Assembly (NCBI GenBank): GCA_052327205.1
Contig: CM126223.1
Location: forward strand, 59,396,001 to 59,460,000
Direction of reading: 5' to 3'
From: Somniosus microcephalus
Taxonomy: Eukaryota
Length of the DNA: 64,000 nt
This document shows, piece by piece, positions 14,234 to 60,486 of the stretch (position 1 is its first letter; every line of letters begins with the position of its first letter). The position numbers and the translations under genes were made by a program. The notes beneath the pieces are model-generated. The model did no database searches, was not told the origin of the DNA, and saw only the letters and a list, made by a program, of their open reading frames with translations.

Positions 14234-14234
<1 letters not shown>

Positions 14235-14302
<68 letters not shown>
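14235..14302. repeat. (CA)n microsatellite
   Basis: Perfect CA run of ~68 bp. Confidence 0.95.
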
Positions 14303-14306
<4 letters not shown>

Positions 14307-20559: not shown

Positions 20560-20704
20560 AACTCTGCTCTGCTCTAGAGCCTTGACATTTCTCTCGCTGC
20601 TTTTAAATTTACTCTTTCCTGAATCCTTCCACCCACCTCTGCTCCCCCCCCCCCACCACCGCCCCCCATCATCCCATCATTAGTTTAAAGCCCTGTCTAC
20701 TGCC

Positions 20705-21181: not shown

Positions 21182-21289
21182 TTGAAAGGCCTCCTTGTAT
21201 TACATCTTGTGAGGGATGTTTTGAATTGATGACCTGAGTTTTGTTATAAAGTTGATGAATGCACCGGGATGTAACTGAAATCATTGTGA

Positions 21290-28100: not shown

Positions 28101-29127
28101 TGATAAATGTGAAGTTATCCACTTCGGTAGAAAAAACAGAAAGGCTGAGTATCATGAATCTTATCATTCATGTGGAAATGACTCATGAAATAACACTGGG
28201 CGGCCAGCTGGTGGCGCAGTGCAAGGAGTATAAATACTCGGGTGTGGACCCAGCTTGCCCAGGACGTTTTTGTAACCAGAAACTAGAATCTCATGGTTGT
28301 GAAACAGTTGATTAAAGCCTTGTTTTATACTCAACCAAGTGCTTAGTGAGTTTTCTTACATCACAGAGTATTATTTAAATGGTGATAGATTGGGAAATGT
28401 TGATGTACAAAAGGACCTGGGTGACCTTGTACACCAGTCACTGAAAGCAAACATGCAGGTGCAGCAAGCAGTTAGGAAGGCAAATGGTATATTGGCCTTC
28501 ATTGCAAGAGGATTTGAGTACAGGAGCAAGGATGTCTTACTACAGTTATACAGGGCCTTGGTAAGACCACACCTGGAGTACTGTGTGCAGTTTTGGTCTC
28601 CTTACCTAAGAAAGGATATACTTGCCATAGAGGGAGTGCAGCGAAGGTTCACCAGACTGATTCCTGGGATGGCAGGACTGTCGTATGAGGAGAGATTGGG
28701 TCGACTAGGCCTGTATTCACTAGAGTTTAGAAGAATGAGAGAGGATCTCATTGAAACATATAAAATTCTGACAGGCTGGATGCAGGGAGGATGTTTCCCC
28801 TGGCTGGGGGATCGAGAACGAGGGGTCACAGTCTCAGGATACAGGTTATGACATTTAGGACTGAGATGAAGAGAAATTCTTCACTCAGAGGGTGGTGAAC
28901 CTGTGGAATTCTCTACCACAGAAGGCTGTGGAGGCCAAGTCACTGAATATATTTAAGAAGGAGATAGATAGATTTCTAGACAAAAAAGGCGTCAAGGGGT
29001 ATGGGGAGAGAGCGGGAATATGGTATTGAGATAGAGGATCAGCCATGATCATATTGAATGGCGGAGCAGGCTCGAATGGGCCGAATGGCCTACTCCTGCT
29101 CCTATTTTTCTATGTTTCTCTGTTTCT
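28101..29127 (+). mobile_element. CR1 3' fragment interrupted by a solo LTR
   Basis: DKCEVIHFGRKNRKAE|YYLNG..QVQQAVRKANG..LEYCVQFWSP; tail ttctatgtttc. Confidence 0.93.
28150..28363 (+). mobile_element. Solo LTR, copy 1
   Basis: Homologous to 45069-45295; flanks ctgag/cagag (5-bp TSD, one mismatch); TATAAA and ATTAAA inside. Confidence 0.78.
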
Positions 29128-30368
29128 ATAACGCTCCTGTGAAGCGCCTTGGGACGTTTTGCTACGTTAAAGACGCTATATAAATACAAGTTGCTGGTGG
29201 CCATGCCTCAATAACAAGCAGTTGGCGAGCTCCGACAGCTGAACGGGTGCCTCAAGGCAGCTCCTCCAGTCCGGGAGGGCAGGAAATCGCCCGACTCCAA
29301 TGTCAAGCCAACTGACTGTCAGTGCAATCCTGGGGACGGACCATGTATCCTGCAATTCCCTACCTACCACCATTGTGGGGAAAACCATCACCACAAGGAC
29401 TGCAGAGATTCAAGGAGAAAGACCACCACCATCTTGTCCATGTGGCCCACATCCCAAGAACAAATTTTTAAAAGAGGATTTAAGCGATTTGATTTTAAAT
29501 GGGAATTGCCATCCTGGGAAAGAAAAAGTACTGGCCAAACTATATCTTACTGCGGTCAGAGCAGGAAGCGAGTCAGAGACGAATGTCATTCATGATGGAT
29601 ATGAGTGATGCAGCAAAGAGCTTTACAGGTTGGGGTTTAAATGTGTGATATTCATTCAGTTGTTTCAATCCATTTTATCAAATTCTTCTGCCTGCTACAT
29701 AATTGAGGGTGTTAACCTTTTAAAATAAACAGTGGAACGAGGAATTTTGCACAAAGCTGCACAACGCACCTGCACCCCATGTGTGCTTGTACATAGACAA
29801 TAAAAGGTTGGCCAATCGCTTTTCTACGAAGACTCAGTATTGGGCTAGAAATTCATTATAGCCCAGGAATGGGCGGTATCTTTAGAAAAGTTTGAGAATT
29901 CGCGCCAGGTGCTAATGCTTTAGACTGCACGCAAAATTTATTCTCACTGCTGGAAGAAATGATTGGGGCGCTAAATCAAGTCTTAAAGGCCTAGCTCAGT
30001 GGCGTTACACTCAAAGGGTGGACCAATATCGGGTGCAGTCTAATCTCAACTCATCATTGCCACAGGCTTTTCCCAGTACTTAAAGGGGAGGTTAATTGAT
30101 ACTGGAGTATCTCATTCTCAGCATTGCTGGCTGTGCAGCTGCCTCAGCAAGGAGAAGGAGCCGGAGGACTGAAGCAGGCGTGCTCATGGCAGATCCACCT
30201 CAGTCGGGTGGTCAGGGTGATTGAATGCTTCAACAAATGCTACATACCACCAACTGTACCACAAGCTTCACACACTGCCCAAAGCACCAGACCCTGAGCA
30301 CTCTCCCACCAACAATCTCGACCTACCAACACACTCACCCACATCTCACACCTTGTACACAATGACAG

Positions 30369-32203
30369 CTAGATATGTGAAGAGAAAAAGATTGGTGAAG
30401 TCAAGCGTAGGTCCCTTGCAGTCAGAATCAGGGGAATTTATCATGGGGAACAAAGAAATGGCTGACCAATTAAATACATACTTTGGTTCTGTCTTCACAA
30501 AGGAGGACACAAATAACCTCCCAGAGATGTCGGGGAACATAGGGTCTAATGAAACGGAGGAACTGATAGAAATCAGTATTTGTAGGGAAATGGTGTTAGA
30601 GAAATTGACGGGATTGAAGGCCAATAAATCCCCAGGGCCTGATAATCTACATCCTAGGGTAATTAAGGAAGTGGCCCTAGAAATAGTAGATGCATTGCTG
30701 GTCATCTTCCAAAATTCGATAGACTCTGGAACAGTACCCATGGATTGGCGGGTAGCTAATGTTACCCCACTGTTCAAAAAAGGTGGTAGAGAGAAAACGG
30801 GGAATTACAGACCGGTAAGCCTGACATCGGTAGTGGGGAAAATGCTAGAGTCCATTATAAAAGATGTAATAGCAGAGCACTTGGAAAACAGTGACCGGAT
30901 CGGACAAAGTCAACTTGGATTTACAAAAGGTAAATCGTGCTTGACAAACTACTGGAATTTTTTGAGGATGTAACTGGTAAAATAGATAAGGGAGAACCAG
31001 TGGATGTGGTGTATTTGGACTTTCAAAAGGCTTTCGATAAGGTCCTGCATAAGAAATTAGTGTGTAAAGTTAAGGCACATGGGATTGGGGGCAAGGTATT
31101 GACTTGGAGAGAGAACTGGTTGGCAGACAGAAAGCAAAGAGTTGGAATAAATGGCTCTTTTTTCCGAGTGGCAGGCAGTGACTAATGGGGTACTGCAGGG
31201 ATCGGTCCTTGGACCCCAGCTATTCACAATATATATTAATGATCTGGACGAGGGAACTAGATGTAATATCTCCAAGTTTGCAGATGACACAAAGCTGGGT
31301 GGGCGTGTGTGCTGTGAGGAGGATGCCGAGAAACTCCAGTACGATTTGGACAGGTTGGGTGATTGGGCAGAAGCATGGCAGATGCAATATAACGTGGATA
31401 AATGCGAGGTTATCCACTTTGGTGTCAAAAACAAGAAGGCAGATTATTATCTGAATGGCAATAGATTGGGAGAAGGGGAAGTGCAACGAGACCTGGGTGT
31501 CCTTGTGCACCAGTCGCTGAAGGTAAGCATGCAGGTGCAGCAGGCAGTTAAGAAGGCAAATGGTATGTTGGCCTTCGTAGCGAGAGGGTTTGAGTACAGG
31601 AACAAGGATGTTTTGCTGCAGTTGTACAGGGCCTTGGTGAGACCACATCTTGAGTATTGTGTGCAGTTTTGGTCGCCTTATCTGAGGAAGGATGTTCTTG
31701 CCATGGAAGGAGTGCAGCGAAGATTCACCAGGCTGATACCTGGGATGACGTATGAGAAGAGATTGGGGCGATTGGGCTTGTACTCGCCGGAATTTAGAAG
31801 AATGAGAGGGGATCTCATTGAAACGTGTAAAATTCTAACAGGACTAGACAGACTAGATGCAGGAAGGACGTTCCCGATGGTCGGGGAGTCCAGAACCAGG
31901 GGTCACAGTCTAAGGATAAGGGGTAAGCCATTGAGGACAGAGATGAGGAGGAATTTCTTCACCCAGAGAGTGGTGAACCTGTGGAATTCTCTACCACAGA
32001 AGGCAGTAGAGGCCAATTCATTAAATATATTCAAGAAGGAGTTGGATATATTTCTTAATGCTAAAGGGATCAAGGGATATGGGGAGAAAGCAGGGACAGG
32101 GTACTGAATTTGGATGATCAGCCATGATCGCATTGAATGGTGGAGCAGGCTCGAGTGGCCAAATGGCCTACTCCTGCTCCTATCTTCTATGTTTCTATGT
32201 TTC
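30369..32203 (+). mobile_element. 5'-truncated young CR1 LINE
   Basis: ORFs 30221-30973, 30937-31185 and 31151-32107 form a continuous RT with two frameshifts; tail tctatgtttctatgtttc. Confidence 0.95.
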
Positions 32204-34053: not shown

Positions 34054-34888
34054 GGGCTGGATTTTCATTGAGGAGTCGGGTAGGAGGCGTGACTACAACT
34101 TTCGGGGTTGTAGTCCTGCCTCCATCGAGTTTTAGCCAACCCACGCAATTTTAACTTGATTGACCTTGTTGAGCCTGCCCAGCGGGCTCAGCAGGCCAAT
34201 TAAGGGCCACCCGGCAACAGGTGACATCACAGATTGATATTTCATCTGTCAAGACCTTTTGACAGATGAAATATTAGCGTTTCACAGCTGTTTGAAGCTG
34301 TCAAACACTGACAATCTGTATTCTAAGTTAATTCCTTCCTCTCAGGATGATTTAGAGATCTGCCCGGAACAGAAAGCTAAATGCTGCAATTTTTGACAGC
34401 TCGCAGCCATTCTGCTTTCTGTGCCGGTGAGATGAGGGACTCCCGAGACCTGAAGGAAGGAAGGCTGTAAAGGTAATTAAAGGTATGTAAAACTTCTTTA
34501 AACACTTTACACCCACCAAACACACTTACCTTTGTACTCATGCACCCATTACTCACCTGAACACCGGACATCTCGAACCCTCCAAGCCCTTCATCCCGAC
34601 GGTCCGCCTCCTCTAACTTGGCGTGGTTTGGAGCCGTCGGGAATCCCACACTTCAGGAATAAAAATAGGGATTAGGCTAAAAACTGCCTCTTAACTACCT
34701 ACTAACAGGCAGTTAATTGGCACTAATCCCCTTCCCGCCTTGGGGAGGCGGGTCCCAGTGCGGGGCGGGTACCCGCCTCCTTTGAAACTGGCATGGAGGC
34801 GGGATGGGGTCGGGACCCCTGATTTCAAGATTTTAACCCCCCCACATGCCTCCAATCCCACCTCCACAGCCCAATGAAAATCCTGCCC
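34054..34888. mobile_element. Harbinger-type MITE family A
   Basis: GGGCTGGATTTTCATTG...CAATGAAAATCCTGCCC; flanks tct/ttt. Confidence 0.88.
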
Positions 34889-35622: not shown

Positions 35623-36742
35623 CATTACCATCTCCTTTTGCCTTGCACCATCATCCCTTTTGTCTTTCAATCTCTCCTGCCTTCCACCCTATCACAGACC
35701 TTCCCTTTGTTCTTTCCTCCCCTCCCCCCTTTCCCTGCCCCTACACTTGCTTAAATATCTGTTACTTCTCCAACTTTTTCCAGTTCTGACGAAGGATCGT
35801 CGACCTGGGCTGGATTTTCATTGAGGAGTCGAGTAGGAGGCGGGACTATAACTTTGGGGTTGTAGTCCCGCCTCCATCGTGTTCTAGCCAACCCACGCGA
35901 TTTTGACTTGATTGACGTTGTTGAGCCCACCCAGCGGGCTCAGCAGGCCAATTAAGGGCCACCCGGCAACAGGTGATGTCACAGATTGAAATTTTATCTG
36001 TCAAGACCTTTTGACAGATGAATTATCAGCGTTTCACAGCTGTTTGAAGCTGTCAAACACTGACAATCTGTACTCTAAGTTAATTCCTTCCTCTCAGGAT
36101 GAATTAGAGATCTCCCCAGAACAGAAAGCTGAATGCGGCAATTTTTGACAGCTTGCAGCCATTCTGCTTTCTGTGCCGGTGAGATGAGGGACTCCCGAGA
36201 CCTGAAGGAAGGAAGGCTGTAAAGGTATGTAAAACTTCTTTAAACACTTTACACACACCAAACACACTTACCTTTGCACTCATGCACCCATCACTCACCT
36301 GAACACCAGACATCTCGACCCCTCCAAGCCCTTCATCCCGGTCTGCCTCCTCTATCTTGACGTGGTTTGGAGCCATCAGGAATCCCACATTTCAACATTA
36401 AAAATAGGGATTAGGCTAAAAACTGCCTGTTAACTACCTATTAACAGGCAGTTAATTGGCACTAATCCCCTTCCCGCCTCAGGGAAGCGGGTCCCAGTGC
36501 GGGGCGGGTACCCGCCTCCTTTGAAACTGGAATGTAGGCGGGTTGGGTATGGGATGGGTTCGCGACCCCCGATTTCGGGATTTTAACCCCCCACACGCCT
36601 CCAATCCTCCCTCCACGGCCCAATGAAAATCCTGCCCGTTAACTCTGTTTCTCTCTCCACGGGTGCTGCCCTGACCTGCTGAGTGTTTCCAGCATTCTCT
36701 GTTGTTGTTTCAGATTTCCAGCATCCGCAGCTATTGTCCTTT
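35623..36742 (+). mobile_element. Penelope-like terminal fragment split by a MITE
   Basis: Homologous to 6375-6690; resumes at 36638 (gttaactctgtttctctctccac...cagatttccagcatc). Confidence 0.7.
35807..36637. mobile_element. Harbinger-type MITE family A
   Basis: Same TIRs and body as 34054-34888; no TSD, small target deletion inferred. Confidence 0.88.
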
Positions 36743-37410: not shown

Positions 37411-39729
37411 AGCCTCCTAGCGACCAGCTTTGAAACAACATTGATGAAATCCTAAAAGCAGGTTCCCCTTGTACGGTATCTTGCCTGATAGAGTGGTACA
37501 TAGTGCACAAAAATAAATGTGGAGGAGGGAAAAAAAGACATGTTGCTACTGGAGATAGCTGTCGCTGTGCCAACAGTAAGGTAAATAGCCTGAAATGGAT
37601 ATATGCTGAGTTTACATACCTACCAACTGAGAACAACCTTGACTAAGTTCACTATAACGATGAGAAAGACATTCCAGAACTATTTTTCACACTAAAAGTC
37701 CATTTTCACACAGTTGATGCATTTGCTAATCCCACCAAACTGGCCCATCACTCTGACAATGACTTTAAACAGTCAAAGGATTTATTAATCATTGTAATTA
37801 CGTTTTTTTTTTGCTGACTTCATTTTCAAAACTAAAATAAGTGCGTGTAAAATCTATCATTTTGATTGATTTCCACGATGCGGTGTAATGGAATTTTTAC
37901 TTCAGTAAAAGTGGAAGCTGAATGAAAAGCCGAAGTGGTGGAGGTGACATTTATTGCTTTATTTGCAACATTTGTGGATTAATGAGGATCTAGCATTTGT
38001 CATTTTTCTCAATTAGATGTTTACAGGTCAAACAAGACTTTTTCCCACCATTATTAGTCCCTCACAGGTTAGTGCGTGGTGGTAATTCACTTAAATGCGC
38101 AAAAAATTCAATTGCACTGGCAGTATTTAATTGCCAGGCATTTAATGGGCTGAAGCAAGTCATTTGTGAAAGTCAGACTGTGGAACATAATAAATTACAG
38201 ACCTTCAGAGAACCTATAAAAAATCTTCTATTCATAGACAAAAATGAAAATTACTTAGTGATTTTTCAATTTCAGAGCCTTGGTGAAGCTAAAAAAACTG
38301 TGACAGTGATTCTGAAATACTAATCTTTAACATTGGTGTTAAATTAGGCTTTCGCTCGGGGCGTGATGCTAGTAAGTGCTTGCTTCACAAAAAAAAATCA
38401 AAAAGCAACTGGGTCTGCCCGGTTCAACTGACGAGAAGTGGGAGTGTGTCATCTCGTCGTTCAATGTTTTATGTTTATCAAGGGGAACTGAGGAATGTAG
38501 GCGCTAGTGAATGGAGCATTTATCCACTTTTGTTGGATAACATCAAGCATTAACTAGGCGCCAGGCATAGCGCTCTAGTAGAATACAAGATGGAGCCCCA
38601 TGCCAAATTTCCCTAGAACTTGTGCCCTCATAGCTCTTGAACTGTACCGAGATGGTTTCGCTTTCCCACGCTCTTTATCACAATAGTTTTCCTCAGCACG
38701 TTGACCAAATTAGTAACCTTGTTTTCGTGTTTAGGATTTGCCAAATTATTGCCTATTTGCACAACTTTTTAATGCTATGGTCTGCTCTCTGTAGATAACA
38801 GCCACACTCATTGTACTTTAGGATCTGCCAGAGAGACAATCGATAACTCCAAGAGCTTAGATTCAATTCCTGCTGATGCACAGACTTCATACCAATGCTT
38901 GGGACAGTGTAAATGTTGGAACTGAATGGAGACTGTGGATAAAGTTCAGCGTCTGAAGGAGGGAAGTGACCATTAAAAAGTTTTGACCATTGGCATGTGC
39001 GTTTTAACCCATGACTCACCACACGAAAATCTCCCAAGGAGGAGCAGCAGTGAGTCTATCACTGCTCCTCAGAGAAGGAAAATTCAGAACAGGCAAAGTT
39101 TAGAGCAGTTCACGTGTATTCCTCAAGAATTCTAACAGCGCGTCCTGTCCTGTGCTGTACCACCTGGTTCTTTAGACAGGAGTTCCCTTTCCTGATGTCT
39201 TCAGCCTCTCATTGGAATCCTTGGATCGTACTGTGCCAATGTTGGATGCAAAACCTGGAATGGATCACTACACTGCACTCCTGCACACTGTGTCACAGCT
39301 GGTACCACAACCATTGTCAAAGGTTTCCGAATAGGTCATTTGTTTATCATCTCCAAGTTCAAGTCCAGGCCAGACTGTCGAAACGACGGTCTCCGCAGTT
39401 CGAAGAGAATGTTCAATGTTTATAAATAAATTAAAATCTACCTGTTGTCAGTGATCCCAGTGAAATTGGGCTTCCAAAGTCCAGTTCTTAATCCGCGCAG
39501 GCTTGCTATGGCACTGGAGCAGCAAGCCAGAGGTCGTGCACCCAAATCCCACCATAGCAAGCTGTGTAAATGAATTCACTAAGTCTGGTCATTTGTGGGC
39601 CATCACCGGGGGGGAAAGAGGACCATGAAAGCTGCCAGATTCACTCCTGATGTTCAAGAAAGAAAACTGCCACCCCTACCCAGTCTGGTCTACGTATGAC
39701 TCTAGTCTACACTCTGTGATTGACTCTTA

Positions 39730-40572
39730 GGGGGTGATTTTCATTCAGGAGTCGGGAAGGAGGCGGGACTACAACTTTCGGGGTTGTAGTCCCGCTTCCA
39801 TCGAGATGCGGCCAATCCACGCGATTTTAACTTGATTGACCTTGTTGAGCCCGCCCAGCAGGCTCAGCAGGCCAATTAAGGGCCACCCGGCAACAGGTGA
39901 CATCACAGACTGAAATTTCATCTGTCAAGACGTTTTGACAGATGAAATATCAGTGTTTCACAGCTGTTTGAAGCTGTCAAACACTGACAGTCTTACTTCT
40001 AACCTGAGTCATTCTACACAGACTCAGTTAGAAATCTCACCGGCACAGAAAGCTGCAGGCTGTCACTTTTGACAGTTCGCAGCCATTCTGCTTTCTGTGC
40101 CGGTTAGATGATGGACTCCCGAAACCTAGAGGAAGGAAGGCTGAAAAGGTAAGTACAGGTAATTTAAACTTCTTTACACACTTTAGACACACCAAACACA
40201 CTTACCGTTGCACTCATGCACCCATCACTCACCTGAACACCGACATCTCGATCCCTCCAAGCCCTTCAGCCCGACGGCCCGATTCCTCCAACTTGGCGTG
40301 GTTTGGAGCAGTCGGGAATCCCACACTTCAAGCTTTAAAATAGGGATTAGGCTAAAAACTGCCTGTTAACTACCTGTTAACAGGCAGTTAATTGGCACTA
40401 ATCCCTTCCCGTCTCGGGTAGGCGGGTCCCAGTGCGGGGCGGGTACCCGCCTCCTGGGAAACTTACATGGAGGCGGGTTGGGGGCGGGATGGTGTCGGGA
40501 CCCCTGAATTCGGGACTTTAACCCCCCGCACGCCTCCAATCCCAACTCCACGTGTGAATGAAAATCGACCCC
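39730..40572. mobile_element. Harbinger-type MITE family A
   Basis: GGGGGTGATTTTCATTCA...TGAATGAAAATCGACCCC, TSD TTA. Confidence 0.88.
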
Positions 40573-44247: not shown

Positions 44248-45061
44248 GAGCAGGAATTTCACTGGGCCGTGGAGGCGGGATTGGAGGCGTGTGGGGGGTT
44301 AAAATCCCGAAATCGGGGGGGGCACGAACCCATCCCGCCCCCAACCCGCCTCCATGCCAGTTTCAAAGGAGGCGGATACCCGACCTGTGCTGGGAGCCGC
44401 CTCCCCGAGGCGGGAAGGGGATTCGTGCCAATTAACTGCCTGTTAACAGGTAGTTAACAGGCAGTTTTTAGCCTAATCCCTATTTTTATTCCTGAAGTGT
44501 GGGATTCCCGACGGCTCCAAACCACGCCAAGTTAGTGAGGCAGGCCGTCGGGCTGAATGGCTTGGAGCGTTCCAGATGTCCGTTGTTCAGGTGAGTGATG
44601 GGTGCATGAGTGCAAAGGTAAGTGTGTTTGGTGTGTGTAAAGTGTTTAAAGAAGTTTTACTTAGCTTTTCTTACCTTTACAGCCTTCCTTCCTTCAGGTC
44701 TCGGGAGTCCCTCATCTCACCGGCACAGAAAGCAGAATGGCCGCGAGCTGTCAAAAGTTGCAGCATTCAGCTTTCTGTTCTGGAGAGATCTCTAAATCAG
44801 CCTGAGAGGAAGGAATTAACTTGGAGTACAGATTGTCAGTGTTTGACAGCTTCAAAGAGCTGTCAAATGCTGATATTTCATCTGTCAAAAGCTCTTGACA
44901 GATGAAATGTCAATCTGTGACGTCGTCTGTTGCTGGGTGGGCTCAACAAGGTCAATCAAGTGAAAATCACGTGGGTTGGCCAGAACTCGATGGAGGCAGG
45001 ACTACAACCACGAAAGTTGTAGTCCTGCCTCCTACACGCCTCCAGTATTAAAATCCAGCCC
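44248..45061. mobile_element. Harbinger-type MITE family A (opposite orientation to 34054)
   Basis: Reverse complement of the 34054-34888 body; ends AAAATCCAGCCC; TSD TAC. Confidence 0.88.
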
Positions 45062-47238: not shown

Positions 47239-47609
47239 NNNNNNNNNNNNNNNNNNNNNNNNNNNNNNNNNNNNNNNNNNNNNNNNNNNNNNNNNNNNNN
47301 NNNNNNNNNNNNNNNNNNNNNNNNNNNNNNNNNNNNNNNNNNNNNNNNNNNNNNNNNNNNNNNNNNNNNNNNNNNNNNNNNNNNNNNNNNNNNNNNNNNN
47401 NNNNNNNNNNNNNNNNNNNNNNNNNNNNNNNNNNNNNNNNNNNNNNNNNNNNNNNNNNNNNNNNNNNNNNNNNNNNNNNNNNNNNNNNNNNNNNNNNNNN
47501 NNNNNNNNNNNNNNNNNNNNNNNNNNNNNNNNNNNNNNNNNNNNNNNNNNNNNNNNNNNNNNNNNNNNNNNNNNNNNNNNNNNNNNNNNNNNNNNNNNNN
47601 NNNNNNNNN
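47239..47609. other. Assembly gap (371 N)
   Basis: Run of n. Confidence 1.
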
Positions 47610-47708
47610 AAAAGTTATAGAGCGTGCCTACACGTATGTTTGTGTGCGCATATATATGTGTGTGTATATGTATATATATGTGTGTTTATATGTATGTGTG
47701 TGTGTATA

Positions 47709-48804
47709 TCTATCTAAAAGAGTTGGTTTGTCTGTCTGTTTGTCTGTCTGTCCGCTATACACTCAAAAGTTATAGAGCGTACCTGCACGCATGTTATATC
47801 AAAAGAAAGCTTATCATTAGGGGAGTCTAATAGGTGTATTTACTTTTTGGTCAGACAAAAATTGTTCCGACAGTGTACAAAAAATGTTCAAAAATCCTCA
47901 AAAATCCGCTCATTAGCGGTTGACCAATCCTACCTCTCATTAGCGTTGAGTGACGTGCTGGTTGACCAATCCTACAGTTCAGTGACCTGATGGTTGACCA
48001 ATCGGTGCGTCACGGGTGGGACCTAATCCTCCAGCCTCCCAAAACTTCGCCGCCATTTTTCCCCCTCAAACTGCCGTTAGTCAGGTGAGTGGCAGCCATT
48101 ACAGACTGGTCGGGCCTCAAGCTCAAAAAATTTATCTCTCTCTCTCTCTCCTCTTCCCTCTCTTCTTCCCTCTCTCTCTCTCCTTCCCCCTCTCTCTTTT
48201 GCCATGAGTGCGGGACCGGCAAAACCGGGGTTTCCAACCAGCCGTCCCCGACCGCAATCGGACACTGGAGTCCGCAGCGAAAAGCGTTCCTCTGCCGCCC
48301 GGCCAACCGGGTCCAAACGTCCGCCGCGTTAACCATCAGCAACCCCGGGCTCGCTTTGGACCGCTGGGCACCCGGCCTCCCGTTGTCAGACTGACTCCGT
48401 TCTGCTACCGAGGTGAGTCCGGCCGGGCCTGAGGCGCTAGCGAGCGACAGGTGAGGCACGGAGAGAAATCAAAGGAGGGAGAGACACTGAGAGGAAGAGA
48501 GAGGGGGGAGTGAGGGAGAGGAGAGGGCGAGGGAGGGAGAGGAGAGGGGGAGGGAGAAGGGAGGGAGGGAGGGAGAGGAGATGGGGAGGGAGGGAGAGAG
48601 AGGGAGGGACTGAGAGAGCGGACAGACAGGAGCAGGGAGAGAGGGGGGAGAGAGAGGGGACAGAGAGAGGGGCAGGGAGAGAGAGGGGGAGGGAGAGAGA
48701 GGGTCAGGGAGGGAAAGAGTGACACAGAGCGGGGGAGCGGCAGCGCCCGGCCGTAAACCGCGCGGCCCAAAATTGCCCTGGCAACGCCGGGCCCCCCCAG
48801 CTAG
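47709..48804 (+). mobile_element. Non-autonomous Helitron, unit 1
   Basis: 5' a|TCTATCTAAAAG followed by (CTGT)n; 3' hairpin gccctggcaacgccgggc then CTAG|t. Confidence 0.85.
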
Positions 48805-48824
48805 TGTATATATATATGTGTGTA

Positions 48825-49700
48825 TCTATATATATAAAACGGTCGATCTGTCTGTCCTTCTGTCTGTCTGTCCTCGGGTGTGCGTCTGCCCGGCTATGCG
48901 CTCGAAAGTTATACCGCGTACCTACGCGCGCGTTACCTCCGAAGAAAGCTTACGCTTCCGGGACGCTGGTAAGCGTATTTACTTTTCGGTCGGATGAAAA
49001 TTGTTCGCGCCTTATGCAAAAAACCTTCAAAATTAAACTCATTATCTGCTAGCATTGATTGACTGACGTCAAGGTTCGACCAATCCTGTGCCGTCATGAT
49101 TGACCAATCCTACAGTACGGTCCCCTGATGGTTGGCCAATTGGTGTGTGTGTGTGTGGGCGGGACTAATCGTTTTCATCTCGGGGATCTGGCAGCCATTG
49201 TTTCAGTGCCATGACTTCAGCTTCCAGCTCAAACTACTTTGAAAGTTAGTATCTCTTTTAAAAATAACATACGATTTACCAAAAACGTTTTATAAGTACT
49301 TTCACTTTCATCTTTCAAGGTATTAAGTGTGTGTGTGGGCGGGACTAATCGTTTTCATCTCAGGGATCTGCCAGCCATTGTTTCACTGCTTGCAGCTCAA
49401 ACTACTCTCCTTATCCAGCTTTGAAAAAGTTAGTTTCTCTTTTAAAAATAACATAAGATTTACCAAAAACATTTTATAAGTACTTTCACTTTCATCTTTC
49501 AAGGTATTAAAAGGTAGAAATCTTGCCCGGCAGCAGATTCACAAAGGAACACAGACAGGACCCTAAAGCCTGGGACTCGATTTAAAATGTTGCCCGGCAC
49601 CAGATTCACAAAGGGACACAGACAGGGCCCCAAAGCCTGGCACTCGATTTAAACCGCCCGCCCCAAAACAGCCCTGGCAAAGCCGGGCTCCCCCAGCTAG
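48825..49700 (+). mobile_element. Non-autonomous Helitron, unit 2
   Basis: 5' a|TCTATATATATAAAA; 3' gccctggcaaagccgggc...CTAG; internal ~180-bp duplication. Confidence 0.88.
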
Positions 49701-51532
49701 TCTATATATATAAAGGAATTGATCTGTCTGTCTGTCTGTCTGTCTGTCTGTCCTCGGGTGTGCGTCTGTCCGGCTATGCGCTTGAAAGTTATAGAGCATA
49801 CCTACGCGCGCGTTACCTCCAAAGAAAGCTTACGCTTCCGGGACGGTCGTAAGCGTATTTACTTTTCGGTCGGACGAAAATTGTTCGCGCCTTATGCAAA
49901 AAACCTTCAAAATTAAACTCATTATCTGCTACTTAGCATTGATTGACTGACGTCAAGGTTCCACCAATCCTGTGCCGTCACGATTGACCAATCCTACAGT
50001 ACAGTCCCCTGATGGTTGGCCAATCGGTGTGTGTGTGTGGGCCAGACTAATCGTTTTCATCTCAGGGATGTGCCAGCCATTGTTTCACTGCTTCCAGCTC
50101 AAACTACTCTCCTTATCCAGCTTTGAAAAAGTTAGTATCTCTTTTAAAAATAACATAACATTTACCCAAAACGTTTTATAAGTACTTTCACTTTCACCTT
50201 TCAAGGTATTAAAAGGTAGAAATGTTGCCCGGCAGCAGATTGAGAGAGGGACACAGACAGGCTATACACTCTAAAGTTATAGAGCATACCTACACGTGCG
50301 TTACATCAAAAGAAAGCTTACGATTCCGGAACGGTCGTAAGTGTATTTACATTTCGGCGAGACAAAAATTGCGCCCGCGGTATCCAAAAAACTTTCAAAA
50401 TTCCGCTCATTAGCATCTCATTATCCGCTCATTAGCATCGAGTGACGTCGACGGTCGACCAATCGCTGCGTGGCGGGGGCGGGTTCCTGGCGCGTGCCGG
50501 CGGGCCCTCCTAGAGTCGAGTGACGGGACCATTGACCAATCCTACGCTTCGGTGACCTGACGGTCGACCAATCGGTGCGTGTGTGGGCGGGCCTTATCGT
50601 TCTGAACCGAGGTGAGTCGCCGCCATCTTGATTCCAAACTTTTCATTTCTTTTTCCCGCTTTCTGCGTCTTTAAATAAAAAGTTGCTTTTAAAACACGTT
50701 GTTTTTTTAAAAAGTTAATTACTTTCTAAATCTTTTATCTAATCTCATTAATTTTCCTACATTTCCCCGTTTTTGCAGGTAGGCCTCGAAGCCTGGGCGT
50801 CTGTTGCCAGCCATGCTGGACCCTAGGCAATTGTTTTGTGGCAAGCTCCTCCCACCCCTCACCCCCCACCCCCCCCCGCTGGGCCCGATTCCGAACCAGC
50901 GGCCAGCCATCTTGGTAAAGGCTGGCTGGGGCTTCATTCGCACTCACGCTGCACGGCGCACGCGCACCTCCACACAGAGCGCGGCCAGAGGGAAGCGAGC
51001 AGGTTAGGGGGGGGCGAGGCTCGGGAGGGGAGCGGGAGCGGAGAGGGTTACCCCGGCAACCGGGCTCGCCAGCCGTAATCGGCCGTCTCAAGCCGCTCAG
51101 GCCCAGGCCCGATCCCGGAGACCGGGAGGCGGAGAGGGGAGGAGGGTTACCAAGGCAACCGGGCCCGGCCAGCCGCAATCGGCCATCTCAAGCCGCCTCA
51201 GGAGGGCGGGGCTCAGGCTGACCGGGGCGCTGCGCTCGGCATGTCACTGCGTGGGGCGGCACGGAGCTCAGCGGAGCCATCGCCGGCAGAGGGGAGAGGG
51301 TCTGCTGGCTCCCCCCTCCCTTTCTCCCCCCCTCCTCTCCTCCCCTTTCTCCCCCTTCCCTGCCCCTCCCCTCCCCTTCCCTTCCCCCCTCCCCTTTACC
51401 CCCCTCCCCCCCCTTCGCTCTCTCTTCCCCCCCAGTCGCTCTCTCTCTTCCCCCCCAGTCGCTCTCTCTCTCTCTCTTCCAACAACAACATGCCCTCGAA
51501 AAAGCCTCGGCACCGCCGGGCACTCCAGCTAG
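49701..51532 (+). mobile_element. Non-autonomous Helitron, unit 3 (chimeric)
   Basis: Starts TC immediately after the CTAG of unit 2; switches near 50260 to a second subtype; 3' gcctcggcaccgccgggc...CTAG|t. Confidence 0.85.
50420..50640 (+). promoter_or_regulatory. Promoter-like cassette inside Helitron (CCAAT x3, GC boxes, splice donor, YY1-like motif)
   Basis: gaccaatc x3, ggggcggg, gtgggcgggc, ccgag|gtgagt at 50612, cgccgccatctt. Confidence 0.55.
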
Positions 51533-51534
51533 TA

Positions 51535-52252
51535 TCTATATATATAAAAAGGAATCGATCTGTCTGTCTGTCTGTCTGTCCTCGGGTGTGCATCTGTCCA
51601 GCTATGCGCTTGAAAGTTATAGAGCGTACCTACGCGCGCGATACCTCCGAAGAAAGCTTACGTTTCCGGGACAGTCGTAAGCATATTTACTTTTCGGTCG
51701 GACAAAAATTGTTCGCGCCTTATGCAAAAAACCTTCAAAATTAAACTCATTATCTGCTACTTAGCATTGATTGACTGACGTCAAGGTTCGACCAATCCTG
51801 TGCCGTCACGATTGACCAATCCTACAGTACAGTCCCCTGATGGTTGGCCAATCGGTGTGTGTGTGTGGGCGGAACTAATCGTTTTCATCTCAGGGATGTG
51901 GCATCCATTGCCTGAAGCTAAAAACACCATTGCTGCTTCAACTCCTTCCAGCTCAAAATCTGCTGATGCAGCTTCGAAAACGTTAGTATCTCTTATGTTA
52001 TTTTTAAAAGATTTACCAAAAACGTTTTATAAGTACTTTCACTTTTATCTTTCAAGGTATTAAAAGGTAGAAATGTTGCCCGGCAGCAGATTGAGAGAGG
52101 GACACAGACAGGGCCCAAAAGCCTGGGACTCGATTTAAAATGTTGCCCGGCAGCAGATTCACAGAGAGACACAGAGAGGCCCCAAAGCCTGGGAATCGAT
52201 TTAAACCGCCCGGCCCAAAACAGCCCTGGCAAAGCCGGGCTCCCCCAGCTAG
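51535..52252 (+). mobile_element. Non-autonomous Helitron, unit 4
   Basis: a|TCTATATATATAAAAAG...hairpin...CTAG|t. Confidence 0.88.
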
Positions 52253-52285
52253 TATATAGAGTGTATTTATATATATATATATGCA

Positions 52286-52317
<32 letters not shown>

Positions 52318-52318
<1 letters not shown>

Positions 52319-53036
52319 CTATATAAACGGATACTTATTTCTGTCTGTCTATCTGTCTGTCCTTCTGTCTGTCCTCACGTGTGCGTCTGTCCGGCTATGC
52401 GCTCAAAAGTTATAGAGCGTACCTACGCGCGCGTTACCTCCGAAGAAAGCTTACGCTTCCGGGACGCTCGTAAGCATATTTACTTTTCGGTCGGATGAAA
52501 ATTGTTCGCACCTTATGCAAAAAACCTTCAAAATTAAACTCATTATCTGCTACTTAGCATTGATTGACTGACGTCAAGGTTCGACCAATCCTGTGACGTC
52601 ACGATTGACCAATCCTACAGTGCAGTCCCCTGATGGTTGACCAATCGGTGTGTGTGTGTGTGGGCGGGACTAATCGTTTTCATCTCAGGGATCTGGCAGC
52701 CATTGTTTCACTGCCATTACTTCAGCTTCCAGCTCAAACTACTTTGATCATCCAGCTTTGAAAAAGTTAGTTTCTCTTTTAAAAATAACATAAGATTTAC
52801 CAAAAACATTTTATAAGTACTTTCACTTTCATCTTTCAAGGTATTAAAAGGTAGAAATGTTGCCCGGCAGCAGATTCACAAAGGTACACAGACAGGGCCC
52901 AAAAGCCTGGGACTCGATTTAAAATGTTGCCCGGCACCAGATTCACAGAGGGACACAGAGAGGCCCCAAAGCCTGGCACTCGATTTAAACCGCCCGGCCC
53001 AAAACAGCCCTGGCAAAGCCAGGCTCCCCCAGCTAG
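52318..53036 (+). mobile_element. Non-autonomous Helitron, unit 5
   Basis: a|TCTATATAAACGG...gccctggcaaagccaggc...CTAG|t, followed by (TA)n(TG)n. Confidence 0.88.
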
Positions 53037-53051
53037 TATATATATATGTGT

Positions 53052-53093
<42 letters not shown>

Positions 53094-55501: not shown

Positions 55502-55677
55502 TGTAGTGTATGTGCCTTTAAGAGCCCCATGTGTGCTGTAATGCCGGTAATGGCCACTCGGGCTATATAAGCCTGTATATTGTGTTATATCCGTTAGTAC
55601 CCCTCCAGACTTTGCTTAGTAAACACCTATGAACCAACTCCAGTCTTCAGTGTCTCTATCAACACACGGACACTACA
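55502..55677 (+). repeat. 5' LTR
   Basis: TGTAGTGT...ACACTACA (8-bp inverted ends), TATATAA, AGTAAA; 3 differences from the 3' LTR. Confidence 0.97.
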
Positions 55678-55678
55678 G

Positions 55679-55692
55679 TGGCGACGAAGTGG
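55679..55692 (+). promoter_or_regulatory. Primer-binding site, probably tRNA-Ser(GCT)
   Basis: TGGCGACGAAG 1 nt after the LTR; complementary to the ...TCGTCGCCA 3' end of vertebrate tRNA-Ser(GCT) (from recall). Confidence 0.75.
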
Positions 55693-56136
55693 AAACGGAC
55701 TTACCTGCAATTCGGCAGCACCTCAAGGACATCGATTCCTCGGGCGTCCAGAAGACTCAAGAAAGTGAAAGAAGCTGTGGTTTCACCAGCTGGCCGAGCT
55801 GGTGGCAGGTACTGCGCTAATCCTTCCTGGACGTCAGGCTGGGGCTCCAGCGGCTGGCTCTACAGCTGGGATAAGCAGCGAAATCGGAGGCAAGCAATAA
55901 CAGACGGGGAGGGAGCACTCGGGAGACGGCCGGCGCTGCAGGCAGGTTGGCGTTCAGACCTAGAGAGAAAGTCCGGCGGGAACGAGTCTCCAACTGTAAA
56001 TAAATAAATAAAAAAAGAACGGAAACCGCGGGAAACAGCGTTGTCATCGGCAGCAGCGGCGGGAAAGCGCGGAAAGCGCCATATCTTTTCTGCAGAAAAG
56101 AAAGAAAAGCGCGGGAAGCGCCATATCTTTTCTAAG

Positions 56137-57333
56137 ATGCCTAAGTCTGGCAATATTGATGCTTTTGATAGCGAAATAGAGGATTGGACCACATATGTGG
56201 AAAGAGTAGAGGTATATTGTACTGCAAATGGAATAGAAGATGAAAAAAAAGCTTCAGTACTGCTGAATTTAATGGGCGCAAAGGCATACGGGCTGTTACG
56301 AAATTTAATCACTCCAGCCAAACCAAAGGACAAGGATTTTAAAGAAATTGTTGATACCCTGCAGGAGCACTTAAACCCAACACCGCTGCTGATAGCGGAA
56401 CGATTCAAATTCTTCAAGAGAAATCAACACAAGAATGAAAGTAACGCTGATTACCTAACCGAATTAAGAAAGCTATCAAAACACTGCCAATTCGGGGCAG
56501 GACTAGCAGATTATCTTCGAGACAAATTCGTCTGCGGTCTCTTAAGTGAAGGAACACAAAAAAAGCTGCTTTCTGAAAAAGATTTAAAACTGGACAAGGC
56601 TTTCAGTATGGCTGTATCATACGAAGCAGCAGCAAGAGGAGCTGCAGAGATACAACAAAAGACACAGGACTTCGGCACCCATGAAATGACACAGGGTTTC
56701 GAAAGATGTTATCGCTGCGGCAGATCCACCCATAACCAGAGGGACTGCTGGTTCAAGGACAAAGCATGCAGGCAATGCGGAAAGATTGGACACATTGCAC
56801 GGGTATGCCGATCTGGACAAAGTAAATCCACAGACAGGAAAAAAAAAATCAATAAAGAAAAGTACAGAAAGGTACAAATGATGACGGACAGTAGCTCCGA
56901 AGACCAGAAGAGCGATAGTGACTCCGAAAACAAGAGACTAAGCTGTCTCAAATTACATAATGTACTTGCCAAAGATGATTACCAGACCATTTGGGTTACC
57001 CTCACGATAGCAGGGTCCCCAGTTAAAATGGAGCTAGATACAGGATCAGCTCTGACCGTAATAAATCGACGGGATTACGAGAGGCTATTTCCGCATATAC
57101 CTTTAAAAGACACATCCATTATCTTAAAAACATATACGGGGCAGAAAGTATACCCCAAAGGAAAAATAAGGGTGCCTGTTGTATACAACGGCAAGGAAAT
57201 ACAAAAGTTGTATTTATACATTCTACAAGATGGTGGCCCACCGCTGTTAGGACGTGAATGGATCAGGCAAATACGTTTAGACTGGCACTCCATTCAGGCA
57301 CTGACGGTGACCAGTAAGAAAAAAAAACGATGA
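56137..57333 (+). CDS. gag: Gypsy Gag (two CCHC zinc knuckles) and aspartic protease
   Basis: First in-frame ATG at 56137; LRDKFVCGL, CYRCGRSTHNQRDC, CRQCGKIGHIARVC, MELDTGS, LLGREW. Confidence 0.9.
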   Translation: MPKSGNIDAFDSEIEDWTTYVERVEVYCTANGIEDEKKASVLLNLMGAKAYGLLRNLITPAKPKDKDFKEIVDTLQEHLNPTPLLIAERFKFFKRNQHKNESNADYLTELRKLSKHCQFGAGLADYLRDKFVCGLLSEGTQKKLLSEKDLKLDKAFSMAVSYEAAARGAAEIQQKTQDFGTHEMTQGFERCYRCGRSTHNQRDCWFKDKACRQCGKIGHIARVCRSGQSKSTDRKKKINKEKYRKVQMMTDSSSEDQKSDSDSENKRLSCLKLHNVLAKDDYQTIWVTLTIAGSPVKMELDTGSALTVINRRDYERLFPHIPLKDTSIILKTYTGQKVYPKGKIRVPVVYNGKEIQKLYLYILQDGGPPLLGREWIRQIRLDWHSIQALTVTSKKKKR

Positions 57334-59100
57334 TGACATCATACCTGAACGATTAAAAGACATCTTGGCCAACGCCAAAGAAGTGTTTCAAGAGAAACTA
57401 GGAACCTTGAAAGGCATCACCGCCTCAATAAAAGTGGAAGATGCAGCAATTCCCAAGTTTTTTAAAGCAAGACCAGTGCCATACGCAATTCGTCCAGCAG
57501 TCGAGGCAGAGCTGGAGAATTTGGAAAATGCAGACGTATTATCCAAAATAGATTGGAGCGAGTGGGCAACACCCATCGTTCCAGTCATGAAGAAAGCATT
57601 GAATAATAATAAATCTGAAGAACAGAGAAAAATTCGCATCTGTGGAGACTTCAAGGTGACGGTAAACCCAGTCCTTCACATGGTACAGTATCCTCTTCCG
57701 AGGATAGAAGATATTTTCGCCTCACTATCCGGAGGGAAACGTTTCACCAAAATTGACTTGGCACAGGCATATCTACAGATGGAGGTTGAAGAGGCCTCTA
57801 AAAAAATATCTCACGATAAATACACACAAAGGTCTGTACCAATACAATCGACTAGTTTTCGGAGTAGCATCCGCTCCAGCTATCTGGCAAAGAGCTATGG
57901 AGCAAGTCCTCCAAGGGATTCCGGGTACTCAATGCTACCTGGACGACATCCTTGTAACAGGAGAAAACGACAACGAGCACCTTGCCAATTTGGAGCAGGT
58001 GCTCACTAGGCTGAGAGAACGGGGCCTACGAGCAAATCGCCCCAAGTGCGAATTTTTCCAAAATCAAATATCATATTGTGGCCACATAATAAATAAGGAA
58101 GGGTTGCATAAGTCACCTGAAAAAATTGAAGCGGTCATAAAAGCCCCAGCACCTGAAAATGTTTCACAATTAAGGTCGTTTCTGGGATTAATAAATTACT
58201 ATCATAAATTTTTACCGAACTTATCAACTTTTCTACACCCTCTTAATGAACTGCTACAAACAGGAGTAATTTGGAAATGGAACGAAGACTGTAAACGTGC
58301 CTTCCATAAATGCAAAGACTTAATCACATCCGAAGAAGTTTTGGCTCATTACAACCCATCACTGCCAATCAGACTGGCGTGCGATGCATCCCCTTACGGC
58401 ATAGGAGCAGTATTATCGCATAAATTCCCTGATGGCTCGGAACGGCCGATAGCTTTTGCGTCATGCTCATTGAACTCAGCTGAGCGTAACTATGCCCAGA
58501 TCGACAGGGAAGCACTCAGCCTGGTATGGGGAGTGAAGAAATTCAACCATTACCTACACGGACAAAAATTTACCTTGTTGACTGACCATCAACCCCTCAT
58601 CTCCATATTCAACCCTAAAAAGGGTGTTCCCATTATAACAGCGCAAAGGCTACAGAGGTGGTCCCTTTTTCTAGGGGCACACCAATACAACATAGAATAC
58701 AAAGGATCAAAACAGCATGGGAATGCTGACGGTTTATCGCGCCTACCGTTGCTAACGGTAGAAGAGGCACCTACAGTAGACCCAGTGGAGATGTTCCACT
58801 CTACCATAGTGGAATGTCTACCAGTAACAAATTCTGCCATTGAAAGGGAGACGAGAAATTACCCGACTATCTCACGGGTCTACGATTTAACAGTGAAGGG
58901 ATGGCCAGCACATGGCGAACCACTGTTGCCAGCATTCTCACAAAGAAGAGAACAGCTGTCAGTGTGCCGAGGAACCTTGATGTGTGGATCCAGAGTGGTG
59001 ATTCCACCCAAACTCCAGGATAAAGTGCTAAAAGAGCTTCACGAGGGGCATCTGGGTGGAGTGAAAATGAAGAACCTAGCCAGGGCGTTTGTATGGTGGC
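57329..59100 (+). CDS. pol: Gypsy Pol RT, RNase H and integrase zinc finger (frameshift at ~57800)
   Basis: WATPIVPV, RICGDFK, YPLPRIEDI, KIDLAQAY, FGVASAPAIWQ, YLDDI, LACDAS, REAL, TDHQPL, ADGLSR, LHEGH. Confidence 0.9.
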
Positions 59101-60127
59101 AGGTATCGATGGAGACATCGAAGAAATGACCAAGAGCTGCCTAGGATGCCAGAAGGTCCAAAACGCTCCACCACAAGCCCCTCTACATCCATGGGAGTGG
59201 CCCTCATCTCCCTGGCAAAGGGTACACATCGACTTTGCTGGTCCATTTATGGACTCAATGTTCTTAATCGCAGTTGATGCACACTCCAAGTGGCCGGAGG
59301 TAATAAAGATGTCCTCCACCACCACGGAAAAAACCATCACAGTATTAAGAACCATATTTGCCAGGAATGGGCTGCCGGAACAGATCTGTTCTGATAATGG
59401 ACCGCAATTTGTGTCCGAAGAATTCAGGAAGTTCTTAAAAAACAATGGGGTTAAGCACTACACGTCCGCCCCATACCATCCCGCCACCAATGGATTGGCT
59501 GAAAGGTTTGTCCAGACCTTCAAGAAGGCCATAAAGGCCATGGGTAATGAAGACATAAAACTTCAGCACAAGGTGGATAACTTCTTGTTCGCATACAGGA
59601 ATGCAACACATATGGTTACCAACCAAACTCCCGCCATGATGTTCTTCAATAGAAACCTAAGATGCCGGCTGGATTTGGTCAAGCCCAACATCAGAAGGGA
59701 CGTGGAGAACTGGCAGTTCCAAGGCATGAATGAAAGGCCAACTAGAACCTTCCAGATAGGTCAACAAGTTTTGGCCCGGGACTACCGTACCGAGAAATGG
59801 CAGCCTGGAACTATCTGCACACGACTAGGACCACTGATGTATACCGTGGACATCGGAGAAAGCATAATAAGGCGCCATGCTGACCAAATCATAGAGTCGT
59901 CTGAAAAGGGACAACCTACACCACAACTCTATACGCCTAACGATGAAGTAGAGATACCCATATCTACCTCCGATCCGGTGATACTGGAACCCGATGAACC
60001 CGACACTGGCATTCAAGCCAAATCAACCTTGCCAAAAGAACCTACTACACCACCAGAAACTACTACACCACCGAGGCGTTATCCGGACCGAGTCAGGAAG
60101 CCTCCAGAGAGACTGACTTATAATTAA
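59093..60127 (+). CDS. pol: Gypsy integrase core and C-terminal domain
   Basis: CLGC, PWQRVHIDFAGP, SDNGPQF, YHPATNGLAERFV; ends RYPDRVRKPPERL. Confidence 0.92.
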   Translation: MVAGIDGDIEEMTKSCLGCQKVQNAPPQAPLHPWEWPSSPWQRVHIDFAGPFMDSMFLIAVDAHSKWPEVIKMSSTTTEKTITVLRTIFARNGLPEQICSDNGPQFVSEEFRKFLKNNGVKHYTSAPYHPATNGLAERFVQTFKKAIKAMGNEDIKLQHKVDNFLFAYRNATHMVTNQTPAMMFFNRNLRCRLDLVKPNIRRDVENWQFQGMNERPTRTFQIGQQVLARDYRTEKWQPGTICTRLGPLMYTVDIGESIIRRHADQIIESSEKGQPTPQLYTPNDEVEIPISTSDPVILEPDEPDTGIQAKSTLPKEPTTPPETTTPPRRYPDRVRKPPERLTYN

Positions 60128-60206
60128 TTAACTACAGCAATGTGTATATTATTTTTCTTATAATATGTAATTAATAATTACTTAAAATATGATGTACTGG
60201 TTAGCT

Positions 60207-60219
60207 AAAAGGGGAGGAA
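60207..60219 (+). promoter_or_regulatory. Polypurine tract
   Basis: AAAAGGGGAGGAA just before the 3' LTR. Confidence 0.9.
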
Positions 60220-60220
60220 T

Positions 60221-60396
60221 TGTAGTGTATGTGCCTTTAAGAGCCCCATGTGTGCTGTAATGCCGGTAATGGCCGCTCGGGCTATATAAGCCTGTATATT
60301 GTGTTATATCCGTTAGTACCCCTCCAGACTTTGCTTAGTAAACACCTATGAATCAACTCCTGTCTTCAGTGTCTCTATCAACACACGGACACTACA
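60221..60396 (+). repeat. 3' LTR
   Basis: 176 bp, matches 55502-55677. Confidence 0.97.
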
Positions 60397-60486
60397 TGTG
60401 GGATTGTACGAGAGTGGAACAGTGGCACAGACTTGATGGGCCGAATGATCGGTTTCTGCACTGTAACATTCTGCGACTCTATAACC

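Follow-up and report, generated by a model that had tools for sequence, protein, structure and literature searches.

Mixed-subfamily Helitron-type units arranged head-to-tail in one (TA)n/(TG)n microsatellite of Somniosus microcephalus: a probable insertion hotspot

Introduction

For the canonical Helitrons (HLE1; defined in PMC11417382), the published account of Helraiser states that RepHel nicks the element at its 5' TC, that the hairpin terminates the process and that circles are formed (PMC4778049, PMC5876387); its insertions are described as occurring at A|T in an AT-rich context, with enrichment in promoters, CpG islands and open chromatin and an absence of local hopping (PMC4778049). 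The lepidopteran Hel-2 elements are reported to carry (CTGT)n after their 5' end (PMC4344730), and an AT preference is reported in wheat (PMC13286980). Tandemly arranged Helitrons are on record for bats and plants (cited within PMC5876387), for Drosophila (10.1101/2021.06.02.446622) and for Xenopus, where they consist of 2-7 monomers (PMC12001565). In Fusarium, Helitrons are described as inserting 2 bp upstream of the 5' end of another copy and as forming composites (PMC5148889), in Paramecium a polar insertion of Helitrons into the telomeric simple repeat is proposed (10.1101/2025.11.06.686955), and for Drosophila a double insertion at a preferred site is described as giving rise to tandems of transposable elements (PMC5932611). 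The Helitrons are reported as lost, in birds only, in PMC4350176. The present work concerns a cluster of Helitron-type units in a stretch of 64,000 nucleotides from Somniosus microcephalus (GenBank assembly GCA_052327205.1, contig CM126223.1, positions 59,396,001 to 59,460,000, forward strand), which is referred to below as the window, and it examines how this cluster compares with the systems mentioned above.

Based on the ends, the subfamilies and the junctions of its units, this locus is probably an insertion hotspot of HLE1 elements, where repeated independent insertions into one tract were followed by deletion and recombination. Successive jumps into the same spot are a known kind of event, and the array is most likely of this kind and not yet a satellite. 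No published description of this family, or of HLE1 elements targeting TA tracts, was found in the literature searched, although supplements, Repbase and Dfam may hold the family; the word "tandem" is absent from the accessible text of PMC4224331, and that of PMC10468316 names Helitron in its references only.

Layout of the array

The array consists of five co-oriented units (U1 to U5), which are 1096, 876, 1832, 718 and 719 bp in length and are separated by spacers of 20, 0, 2 and 65 bp. When the two parts of U3 and a fragment beside an assembly gap (U0) are considered, there are 6-7 related Helitron-type pieces, all head-to-tail, in one short TA/TG repeat. The unit coordinates and spacer lengths given in an earlier note on this DNA were recovered, with a TCTAT start and a CAGCTAG end in each unit, and (CTGT)n-type repeats are present in the head of each unit as it had described. 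The features of the locus are as follows.

47239..47609, no strand: assembly gap of 371 N, which conceals the left edge of the cluster
47610..47640, plus strand: U0, an internal piece of a 5' head, without 3' end (profile positions 12-42, E 5e-4)
47641..47708, no strand: left host (TA)n/(TG)n tract, 68 bp
47709..48804, plus strand: U1, 1096 bp, a subfamily of its own; hairpin at 48775-48792
48805..48824, no strand: spacer 1, 20 bp of TA/TG
48825..49700, plus strand: U2, subfamily A, 876 bp; hairpin at 49670-49689
49701..50261, plus strand: U3a, the 5' 561 bp of a subfamily A copy, with zero spacer to U2
50262..51532, plus strand: U3b, the last 1271 bp of U3, third subfamily; hairpin at 51504-51521, CTAG end
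51533..51534, no strand: spacer 3, TA
51535..52252, plus strand: U4, subfamily A, 718 bp; hairpin at 52222-52241
52253..52317, no strand: spacer 4, 65 bp of TA/TG
52318..53036, plus strand: U5, subfamily A, 719 bp; hairpin at 53006-53025
53037..53093, no strand: right host (TA)n/(TG)n tract, 57 bp

The piece U0 has the same orientation as U1-U5, passes straight into the TG/TA tract, and is either a truncated copy or an assembly edge. The earlier note had reported a fragment abutting the gap and had suggested that the array may be longer; the fragment is real, being an internal part of a 5' head, and the gap of 371 N is shorter than any complete unit. If this number is a true size estimate, as its non-round value suggests, the gap cannot hide a whole unit.

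Ends of the units and their relationship to Helitrons

All five units start with TC (the head of U3b is lost and that of U0 lies in or beyond the gap) and all five end with CTAG, which fits CTRR, U3a and U0 being without a 3' end. In each of the five, a GC stem that has a loop of 3 nt is formed when the last 40 nt are folded (-6.0 to -7.2 kcal/mol). It lies 7-8 nt before CTAG in the folded structure, or 8-9 nt when counted from the core stem; between copies and subfamilies the stem is conserved and the loop varies. However, a loose scan of the window for a hairpin followed by CTRRT gave 18 matches outside the array (9 on the plus and 9 on the minus strand), due to which this signature alone is not diagnostic and the hairpin serves as supporting evidence only. 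It is the homology of the ends, rather than the hairpin signature, which is decisive. In searches of the window, a profile of the tail identified the five tails with E values of 2e-16 to 7e-9, and profiles built from the copies identified six heads, the internal duplication of U2, and U0, all on the plus strand; no other match in the window to the array-end profiles was seen below E 0.65, and BLASTN agrees with this.

Terminal inverted repeats (TIRs) were not found, as only 1-4 of the 20 terminal bases are complementary, and complementarity of the termini is also absent among the 25 longest of 413 inverted pairs. The 3' flank is T for all five units and the 5' flank is A for four of them (U3 abuts U2), and once the elements are removed in silico all five cuts are A|T steps, a test that is soft in view of the frequency of AT steps in the tract (51 in 212 bp). 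A target-site duplication (TSD) was not found around U2 and U3. The features of HLE2 elements (Helentron/Helitron2/DINE-1) are also not seen, the flanks being A|T rather than T|T, the ends being TC/CTAG, and complementarity of the termini being absent as described above. The ends of the units fit non-autonomous canonical Helitrons (HLE1). The earlier note had likewise read the units as non-autonomous Helitrons, and the TC and hairpin-CTAG ends, the lack of TIRs and the A|T cuts inside the TA/TG tract agree with this.

It may be asked in this context whether the units belong to some other class of microsatellite-targeting element (a site-specific non-long-terminal-repeat (non-LTR) element or short interspersed nuclear element, a TIR-bearing miniature inverted-repeat transposable element, or a Helentron), with the TC and CTAG ends being incidental. 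Mutator-like elements targeting TA reportedly exist, which counts for this possibility, and any TSDs would be masked by the tract. Further, co-oriented insertion in simple repeats is described as typical of target-specific non-LTR elements (PMC3706591). However, the TC start is precise in five of five units, the hairpin-CTAG end is conserved across the subfamilies, no TIR, poly-A tail, tRNA match or other Rfam match above threshold is present in the array, and the zero-spacer junction leaves no room for a TSD. We therefore regard this origin as very improbable.

Subfamilies of the units and the junctions between them

The units of the array represent three subfamilies, viz. A (U2, U3a, U4 and U5; a unit of ~720 bp), U1, and U3b. 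The A copies are 93.8-96.3% identical over a 273-column block of the head (97.2-99.1% over its 215 non-CpG columns) and 83.9-98.1% over a 161-column middle module (the two module copies of U2 being counted separately), and the three complete A copies are 91.9-95.1% identical over the 3' 185 columns. The heads of U1, U3b and U5, in comparison, show 71.8-76.9% identity over 294 columns, and this head of ~300 bp and the terminal 40-50 bp are all that U1 and U3b share with A and with each other. In U1, a head ~72% identical to those of A and U3b is followed by a unique GC/GA-rich interior and a last ~50 bp that are A-like; U3b has a GC-rich unique interior and its TC/(CTGT)n head is missing. Neither interior has a match elsewhere in the window.

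Individual units also differ in their structural changes. U3 is a fusion at 50261/50262 over 1-2 nt of G microhomology, in which U3a is without its own 3' end (~140 bp are missing). U2 carries a private tandem duplication of 184 bp (49147-49510), besides the 67-bp doublet of the family (49518-49653), which is common to the complete A copies. U4 shows a divergent mid segment and a private short inversion at ~51991-52009, bounded by TCTT/AAGA inverted ends. It was also observed that the 67-bp repeat of A holds a GGACACAGACAGG motif, which approximates the (CTGT)nCC motif of the head in reverse complement, and that the fusion point of U3 lies at the end of this repeat (50244-50261); this coincidence may be due to chance, or the deletion may have been guided by a fold-back. 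The head block of the A copies contains 23 private changes, 12 of them CpG transitions, a pattern which can be read as indicating that the A copies are young and under methylation decay; U1 is probably older.

The relationships among the A copies bear on the origin of the array. There are 9 informative sites that support the grouping of U2 and U5 versus U3a and U4, compared to 1 or 3 for U2 with U3a (depending upon the module copy of U2 that is used) and 0 for U2 with U4, although some of these are CpG sites and possible homoplasies. The order of the sublineages along the array is thus alpha-beta-beta-alpha, and since the informative sites split U2 from U3a, the zero-spacer junction joins different sublineages.

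If the array had originated as a rolling-circle concatemer, or by read-through of the terminator, then a donor array located elsewhere would have supplied one or two molecules of several units each, inserted as a block. Such a block would explain the co-orientation at once, bypass of the 3' end is described as demonstrated for Helraiser (PMC4778049), and the exact CTAG|TC junction at 49700/49701 is that of a Helraiser circle as described in PMC4778049 and PMC5876387. However, a concatemer predicts that one unit is repeated, whereas U2 and U3a differ at 13 of 273 head columns and belong to different sublineages; three of the four junctions hold host-type TA/TG spacers of unequal length; and the copying of a block merely shifts the origin of a mixed array to another locus. 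In view of these considerations, such an origin is unlikely.

Similarly, if one or two insertions had been expanded in place by unequal crossing-over and were being homogenised, the array would be an incipient satellite, as the earlier note had proposed in describing it as turning into one. Co-oriented copies are a substrate for unequal exchange, U3a groups with U4, and the copies of mixed ancestry in the 184-bp duplication of U2 and a 3' indel common to U4 and U5 suggest some exchange. However, no junction occurs twice, the units range in length from 718 to 1832 bp and belong to three subfamilies, no unit-length period was found by Tandem Repeats Finder (within its 500-bp limit), and the gap, provided that its stated size is correct, could not accommodate a further complete unit. 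A satellite and a concatemer both predict repeated junctions and neighbours that are most similar to each other; however, all four junctions differ, and there is no closer similarity across the zero-spacer junction. The satellite interpretation consequently has little probability and this part of the earlier note is not upheld. The exchange between copies is raw material for the growth of a satellite, with no expansion being visible.

The target tract and the orientation of the units

Removal of the elements leaves a compound (TA)n/(TG)n microsatellite of 212 bp with 51 A|T steps, which is the only TA-rich tract of the window; no element lies in the long (CA)n tract at 14233-14312, where TA steps are few. 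As the tract holds 51 of the 3788 AT steps of the window (1.3%), the chance of four further insertions in it is p ~3e-8, a value that is illustrative since the site was chosen after the fact. The insertion of five units in one orientation at randomly chosen A|T steps of the tract was simulated 200,000 times; at least one zero spacer was seen in 18% of the runs and two spacers of <=2 bp in 5.8% (p 0.058; present-day tract length used). Targeting of the elements' own ends, which the earlier note had put forward, is possible and not needed, because plain targeting of the tract yields two such short spacers at this frequency.

The seven pieces that the window contains are all situated in this tract and share one orientation, for which the chance is 1/16, 1/32 or 1/64 when five, six or seven pieces are counted, respectively. 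The case for co-orientation beyond chance is suggestive, not strong. The tract itself is strand-asymmetric (49 TG vs 2 CA on the plus strand); the 10 bp directly flanking U5, however, consist of TA only and are symmetric. Nearly identical copies that lie close together in inverted orientation are unstable. The co-orientation could possibly result from strand-biased targeting, from the exposure of a single strand in transcription or replication, or from the loss of closely spaced inverted copies.

Coding and promoter-like content

The scan of 35 stop-to-stop open reading frames (ORFs) of the array (of 71 at >=45 aa) detected neither RepHel nor any other Pfam domain, and in the 123 ORFs of >=85 aa scanned elsewhere in the window RepHel was not found either, the only domains there being those of retroelements. 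In Rfam, 13 sub-threshold matches, mostly to the TA/TG tracts and low-complexity parts, were all rejected. A 75-residue conceptual translation of the U2 head, searched for copies mis-annotated as genes, yielded no candidate, a result that is uninformative on copy number, and a scan for sigma-70 promoters and terminators gave results at chance level, which have no relevance to a eukaryote.

Each of the six heads contains three CCAAT boxes, of which the second and third are always separated by exactly 32 bp, though the subfamilies are only 72-77% alike. Downstream of them in the heads there is a GC-box-like motif and then a motif that we take to be YY1-like. The modules are located as follows, the first CCAAT being at the first position given.

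47924-48060, plus strand: triple-CCAAT module of U1
49080-49200, plus strand: triple-CCAAT module of U2
49964-50080, plus strand: triple-CCAAT module of U3a
50459-50630, plus strand: triple-CCAAT module of U3b
51792-51912, plus strand: triple-CCAAT module of U4
52585-52707, plus strand: triple-CCAAT module of U5

The counts of plain CCAAT are marginally above those of shuffled sequences (reached in 67-117 of 2000), and the pattern RRCCAATS is far above them (0-2 of 5000), this pattern having been picked post hoc in heads that are homologous and non-independent. The longest stretch that is conserved in all three subfamilies, of 14 nt, includes a CCAAT box. Donor-like GGTGAGT sites are present in U1 and U3b, and U3b has in addition an acceptor-like site near 50778 and, after it, a frame of 64 codons that begins with the ATG at 50813 and has no Pfam match. 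For CpG, the observed/expected ratio reaches 0.84-0.93 in five of the element pieces; it is 0.65 in U1, versus 0.50 in the remainder of the window. To judge from these motifs, the putative promoter head may be the left end of an autonomous partner or a captured promoter. A literature search on the 32-bp spacing of CCAAT boxes retrieved nothing related.

Sequential insertion as the favoured explanation

In the explanation by sequential insertion, the unit termini, their cuts at A|T, the division into subfamilies and the four differing junctions are observed. A RepHel encoded elsewhere in the genome would copy elements of at least three related subfamilies in trans and insert them singly, in succession, at A|T steps within a TA/TG microsatellite of ~210 bp, whose AT-rich, easily melted sequence may attract the single-strand nuclease. 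Heads that are CpG-rich and promoter-like, once resident, may keep the site open to further insertions. U3 would have been in place before U2 arrived, its first base providing the A|T step into which U2 was inserted. Deletion would have fused an A copy to a copy of the third subfamily to give U3, either later or before its arrival; exchange between A copies may have led to the 184-bp duplication and mosaic sites of U2, and deletion and exchange may also be behind U0. The common orientation could have come about by strand-biased target use or by the loss of closely spaced inverted copies.

Several observations, however, weigh against this explanation. The GC hairpins near CTAG, although they fold in all five units as the earlier note had claimed, are individually weak in comparison with shuffled sequences (z -1.0 to -1.95; 9-30 of 200 shuffles fold equally well), and two-sided covariation was seen in 0 of 8 predicted hairpin pairs. 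Apparent direct repeats of 6, 2 and 10 bp flank U1, U4 and U5, respectively, where the flanks are microsatellite, and a TSD is possible at these three units. Because no RepHel-coding partner and no solitary copy were found in the window, the membership in HLE1 is one based on structure. The left flank of U3 is G and not A; this base and the zero spacer would both follow if U2 inserted later at the first base of U3. Further, U3a and U4 are near neighbours and group together, for which a local duplication would give the same result, and the mosaic sites in the second module copy of U2 and the 3' indel common to U4 and U5, which differ elsewhere, point to some exchange between copies. Lastly, there is a gap in the assembly here, and U0 and the junction in U3 are possible mis-joins. 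In an extreme form of this last objection, the whole array would be an assembly artefact, i.e. dispersed copies stitched via their TA/TG flanks beside the gap: the array starts at the 371-N gap, the joins of U0 and U3 are abnormal, and simple repeats are generally known as common points of mis-joining. However, the two junctions with spacers of 0 and 2 bp offer no simple-repeat overlap, and the private variants in each copy indicate that these are not duplicates of one contig, so that an artefact appears extremely improbable.

Other elements in the window

No host gene domain was found in the window. An apparently full-length Gypsy-type LTR retrotransposon is present at 55502-60401, with two LTRs of ~180 bp that are 97.8% identical, a 5-bp TSD, and gag-protease, reverse transcriptase (RT)-RNase H and integrase domains spread over several reading frames. 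A dispersed non-coding family of ~840 bp is represented at 34054-34888, 35807-36637, 39728-40572 and 44248-45061, and by partial copies at 12832-13183 and 18419-19280; its members are 82-90% identical, occur in both orientations, and have TIRs of ~17 bp starting with GGG, several strong internal hairpins and, in 2 of the 4 copies, a visible 3-bp TSD. This family is probably a non-autonomous TIR transposon; that it is a second rolling-circle family was ruled out by the TIRs. Remains of long interspersed nuclear elements (LINEs) of the CR1/L2 type are found at 16700-21200, 28150-32200 and elsewhere, comprising RT, endonuclease and a GDSL-esterase-like piece of ORF1. For the LINE ORF at 31151-32104, among the best 120 of 2734 matches, the closest named are from Mobula, Hypanus and Leucoraja (73-80% identity), followed by Pristis, Callorhinchus and Chiloscyllium, with most birds and turtles at ~40-53%. 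These matches place the host among the cartilaginous fishes, in agreement with the shark family that the earlier note had assumed as far as this wider group.

Significance and comparison with known systems

Tandem Helitrons are usually credited to rolling-circle concatemers, and this locus looks like a clean counter-example, as insertion in sequence is recorded by its mixed subfamilies and by the host spacers that remain, and can give rise even to a perfect CTAG|TC junction. A broader interpretation, which is possible though doubtful, is that the cartilaginous fishes harbour a polar HLE1 lineage specific for compound (TA)n/(TG)n microsatellites, which has a fixed polarity on the TG strand and builds mixed, promoter-bearing trains. 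If this were true, the specificity would be common to three or more subfamilies, which are similar to the target in their TA-rich left ends, and each arrival would add a CpG-rich triple-CCAAT putative promoter that opens the site for the next. The genome would then hold many polar, mixed-subfamily Helitron trains, with stacked promoters, serving as factories for chimeras such as U3, and the lineage would correspond, among vertebrates, to the Paramecium Helitrons that target repeats. If the preference is genome-wide, it would indicate a target-specific polar HLE1 lineage in a vertebrate group on whose Helitrons little was found, and the target choice of RepHel would become directly testable; if the preference fails, the locus would be an ordinary hotspot, the family of which is uncatalogued and would be of use in the annotation of repeats.

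In its ends, the array is like Helibat/Helraiser as described in PMC4778049 and PMC11417382, with a 5' TC, a 3' hairpin near CTAG, no TIRs, and A|T insertion in an AT-rich target, and like the reported bat HelibatN3 it is non-autonomous with promoter and splice-donor-like content (in the array, sequence motifs only). However, Helraiser is described as dispersed in HeLa cells, whereas the array holds three subfamilies in one microsatellite with no transposase found in the window. The non-autonomous lepidopteran Hel-2, compared by its published description, shares the TC/CTRR ends, a 3' stem-loop and a variable (CTGT)n near the 5' end, but is reported to have 5' and subterminal inverted repeats, of which none is evident at the array termini. 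The case described for Drosophila double insertions (PMC5932611) is similar in that head-to-tail neighbours are able to expand later; however, it is shown there for TSD-making elements, and the word "helitron" is absent from the main text of that report. The Fusarium Helitrons, according to their description, resemble the array in near-5'-end insertion, in short extra 5' termini and in chimeric elements, but they are non-canonical (Helitron2-like) and no mention of a microsatellite tract was found there. The Paramecium Helitrons, as presented in their report, likewise involve a strand-asymmetric simple repeat, one orientation, and variable flanking repeats outside the element; they differ, however, in being a separate clade at telomeres and many loci, while the array is a single interstitial TA/TG locus with HLE1 ends. 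Lastly, the array has head-to-tail copies like the tandem arrays described from bats, plants, Drosophila and Xenopus; however, unlike these, which are credited in the published accounts to rolling-circle amplification of one element, it contains mixed subfamilies, with host microsatellite between most of its units. In this single, selected case every ingredient has a precedent, and it is their combination at one locus that is unusual.

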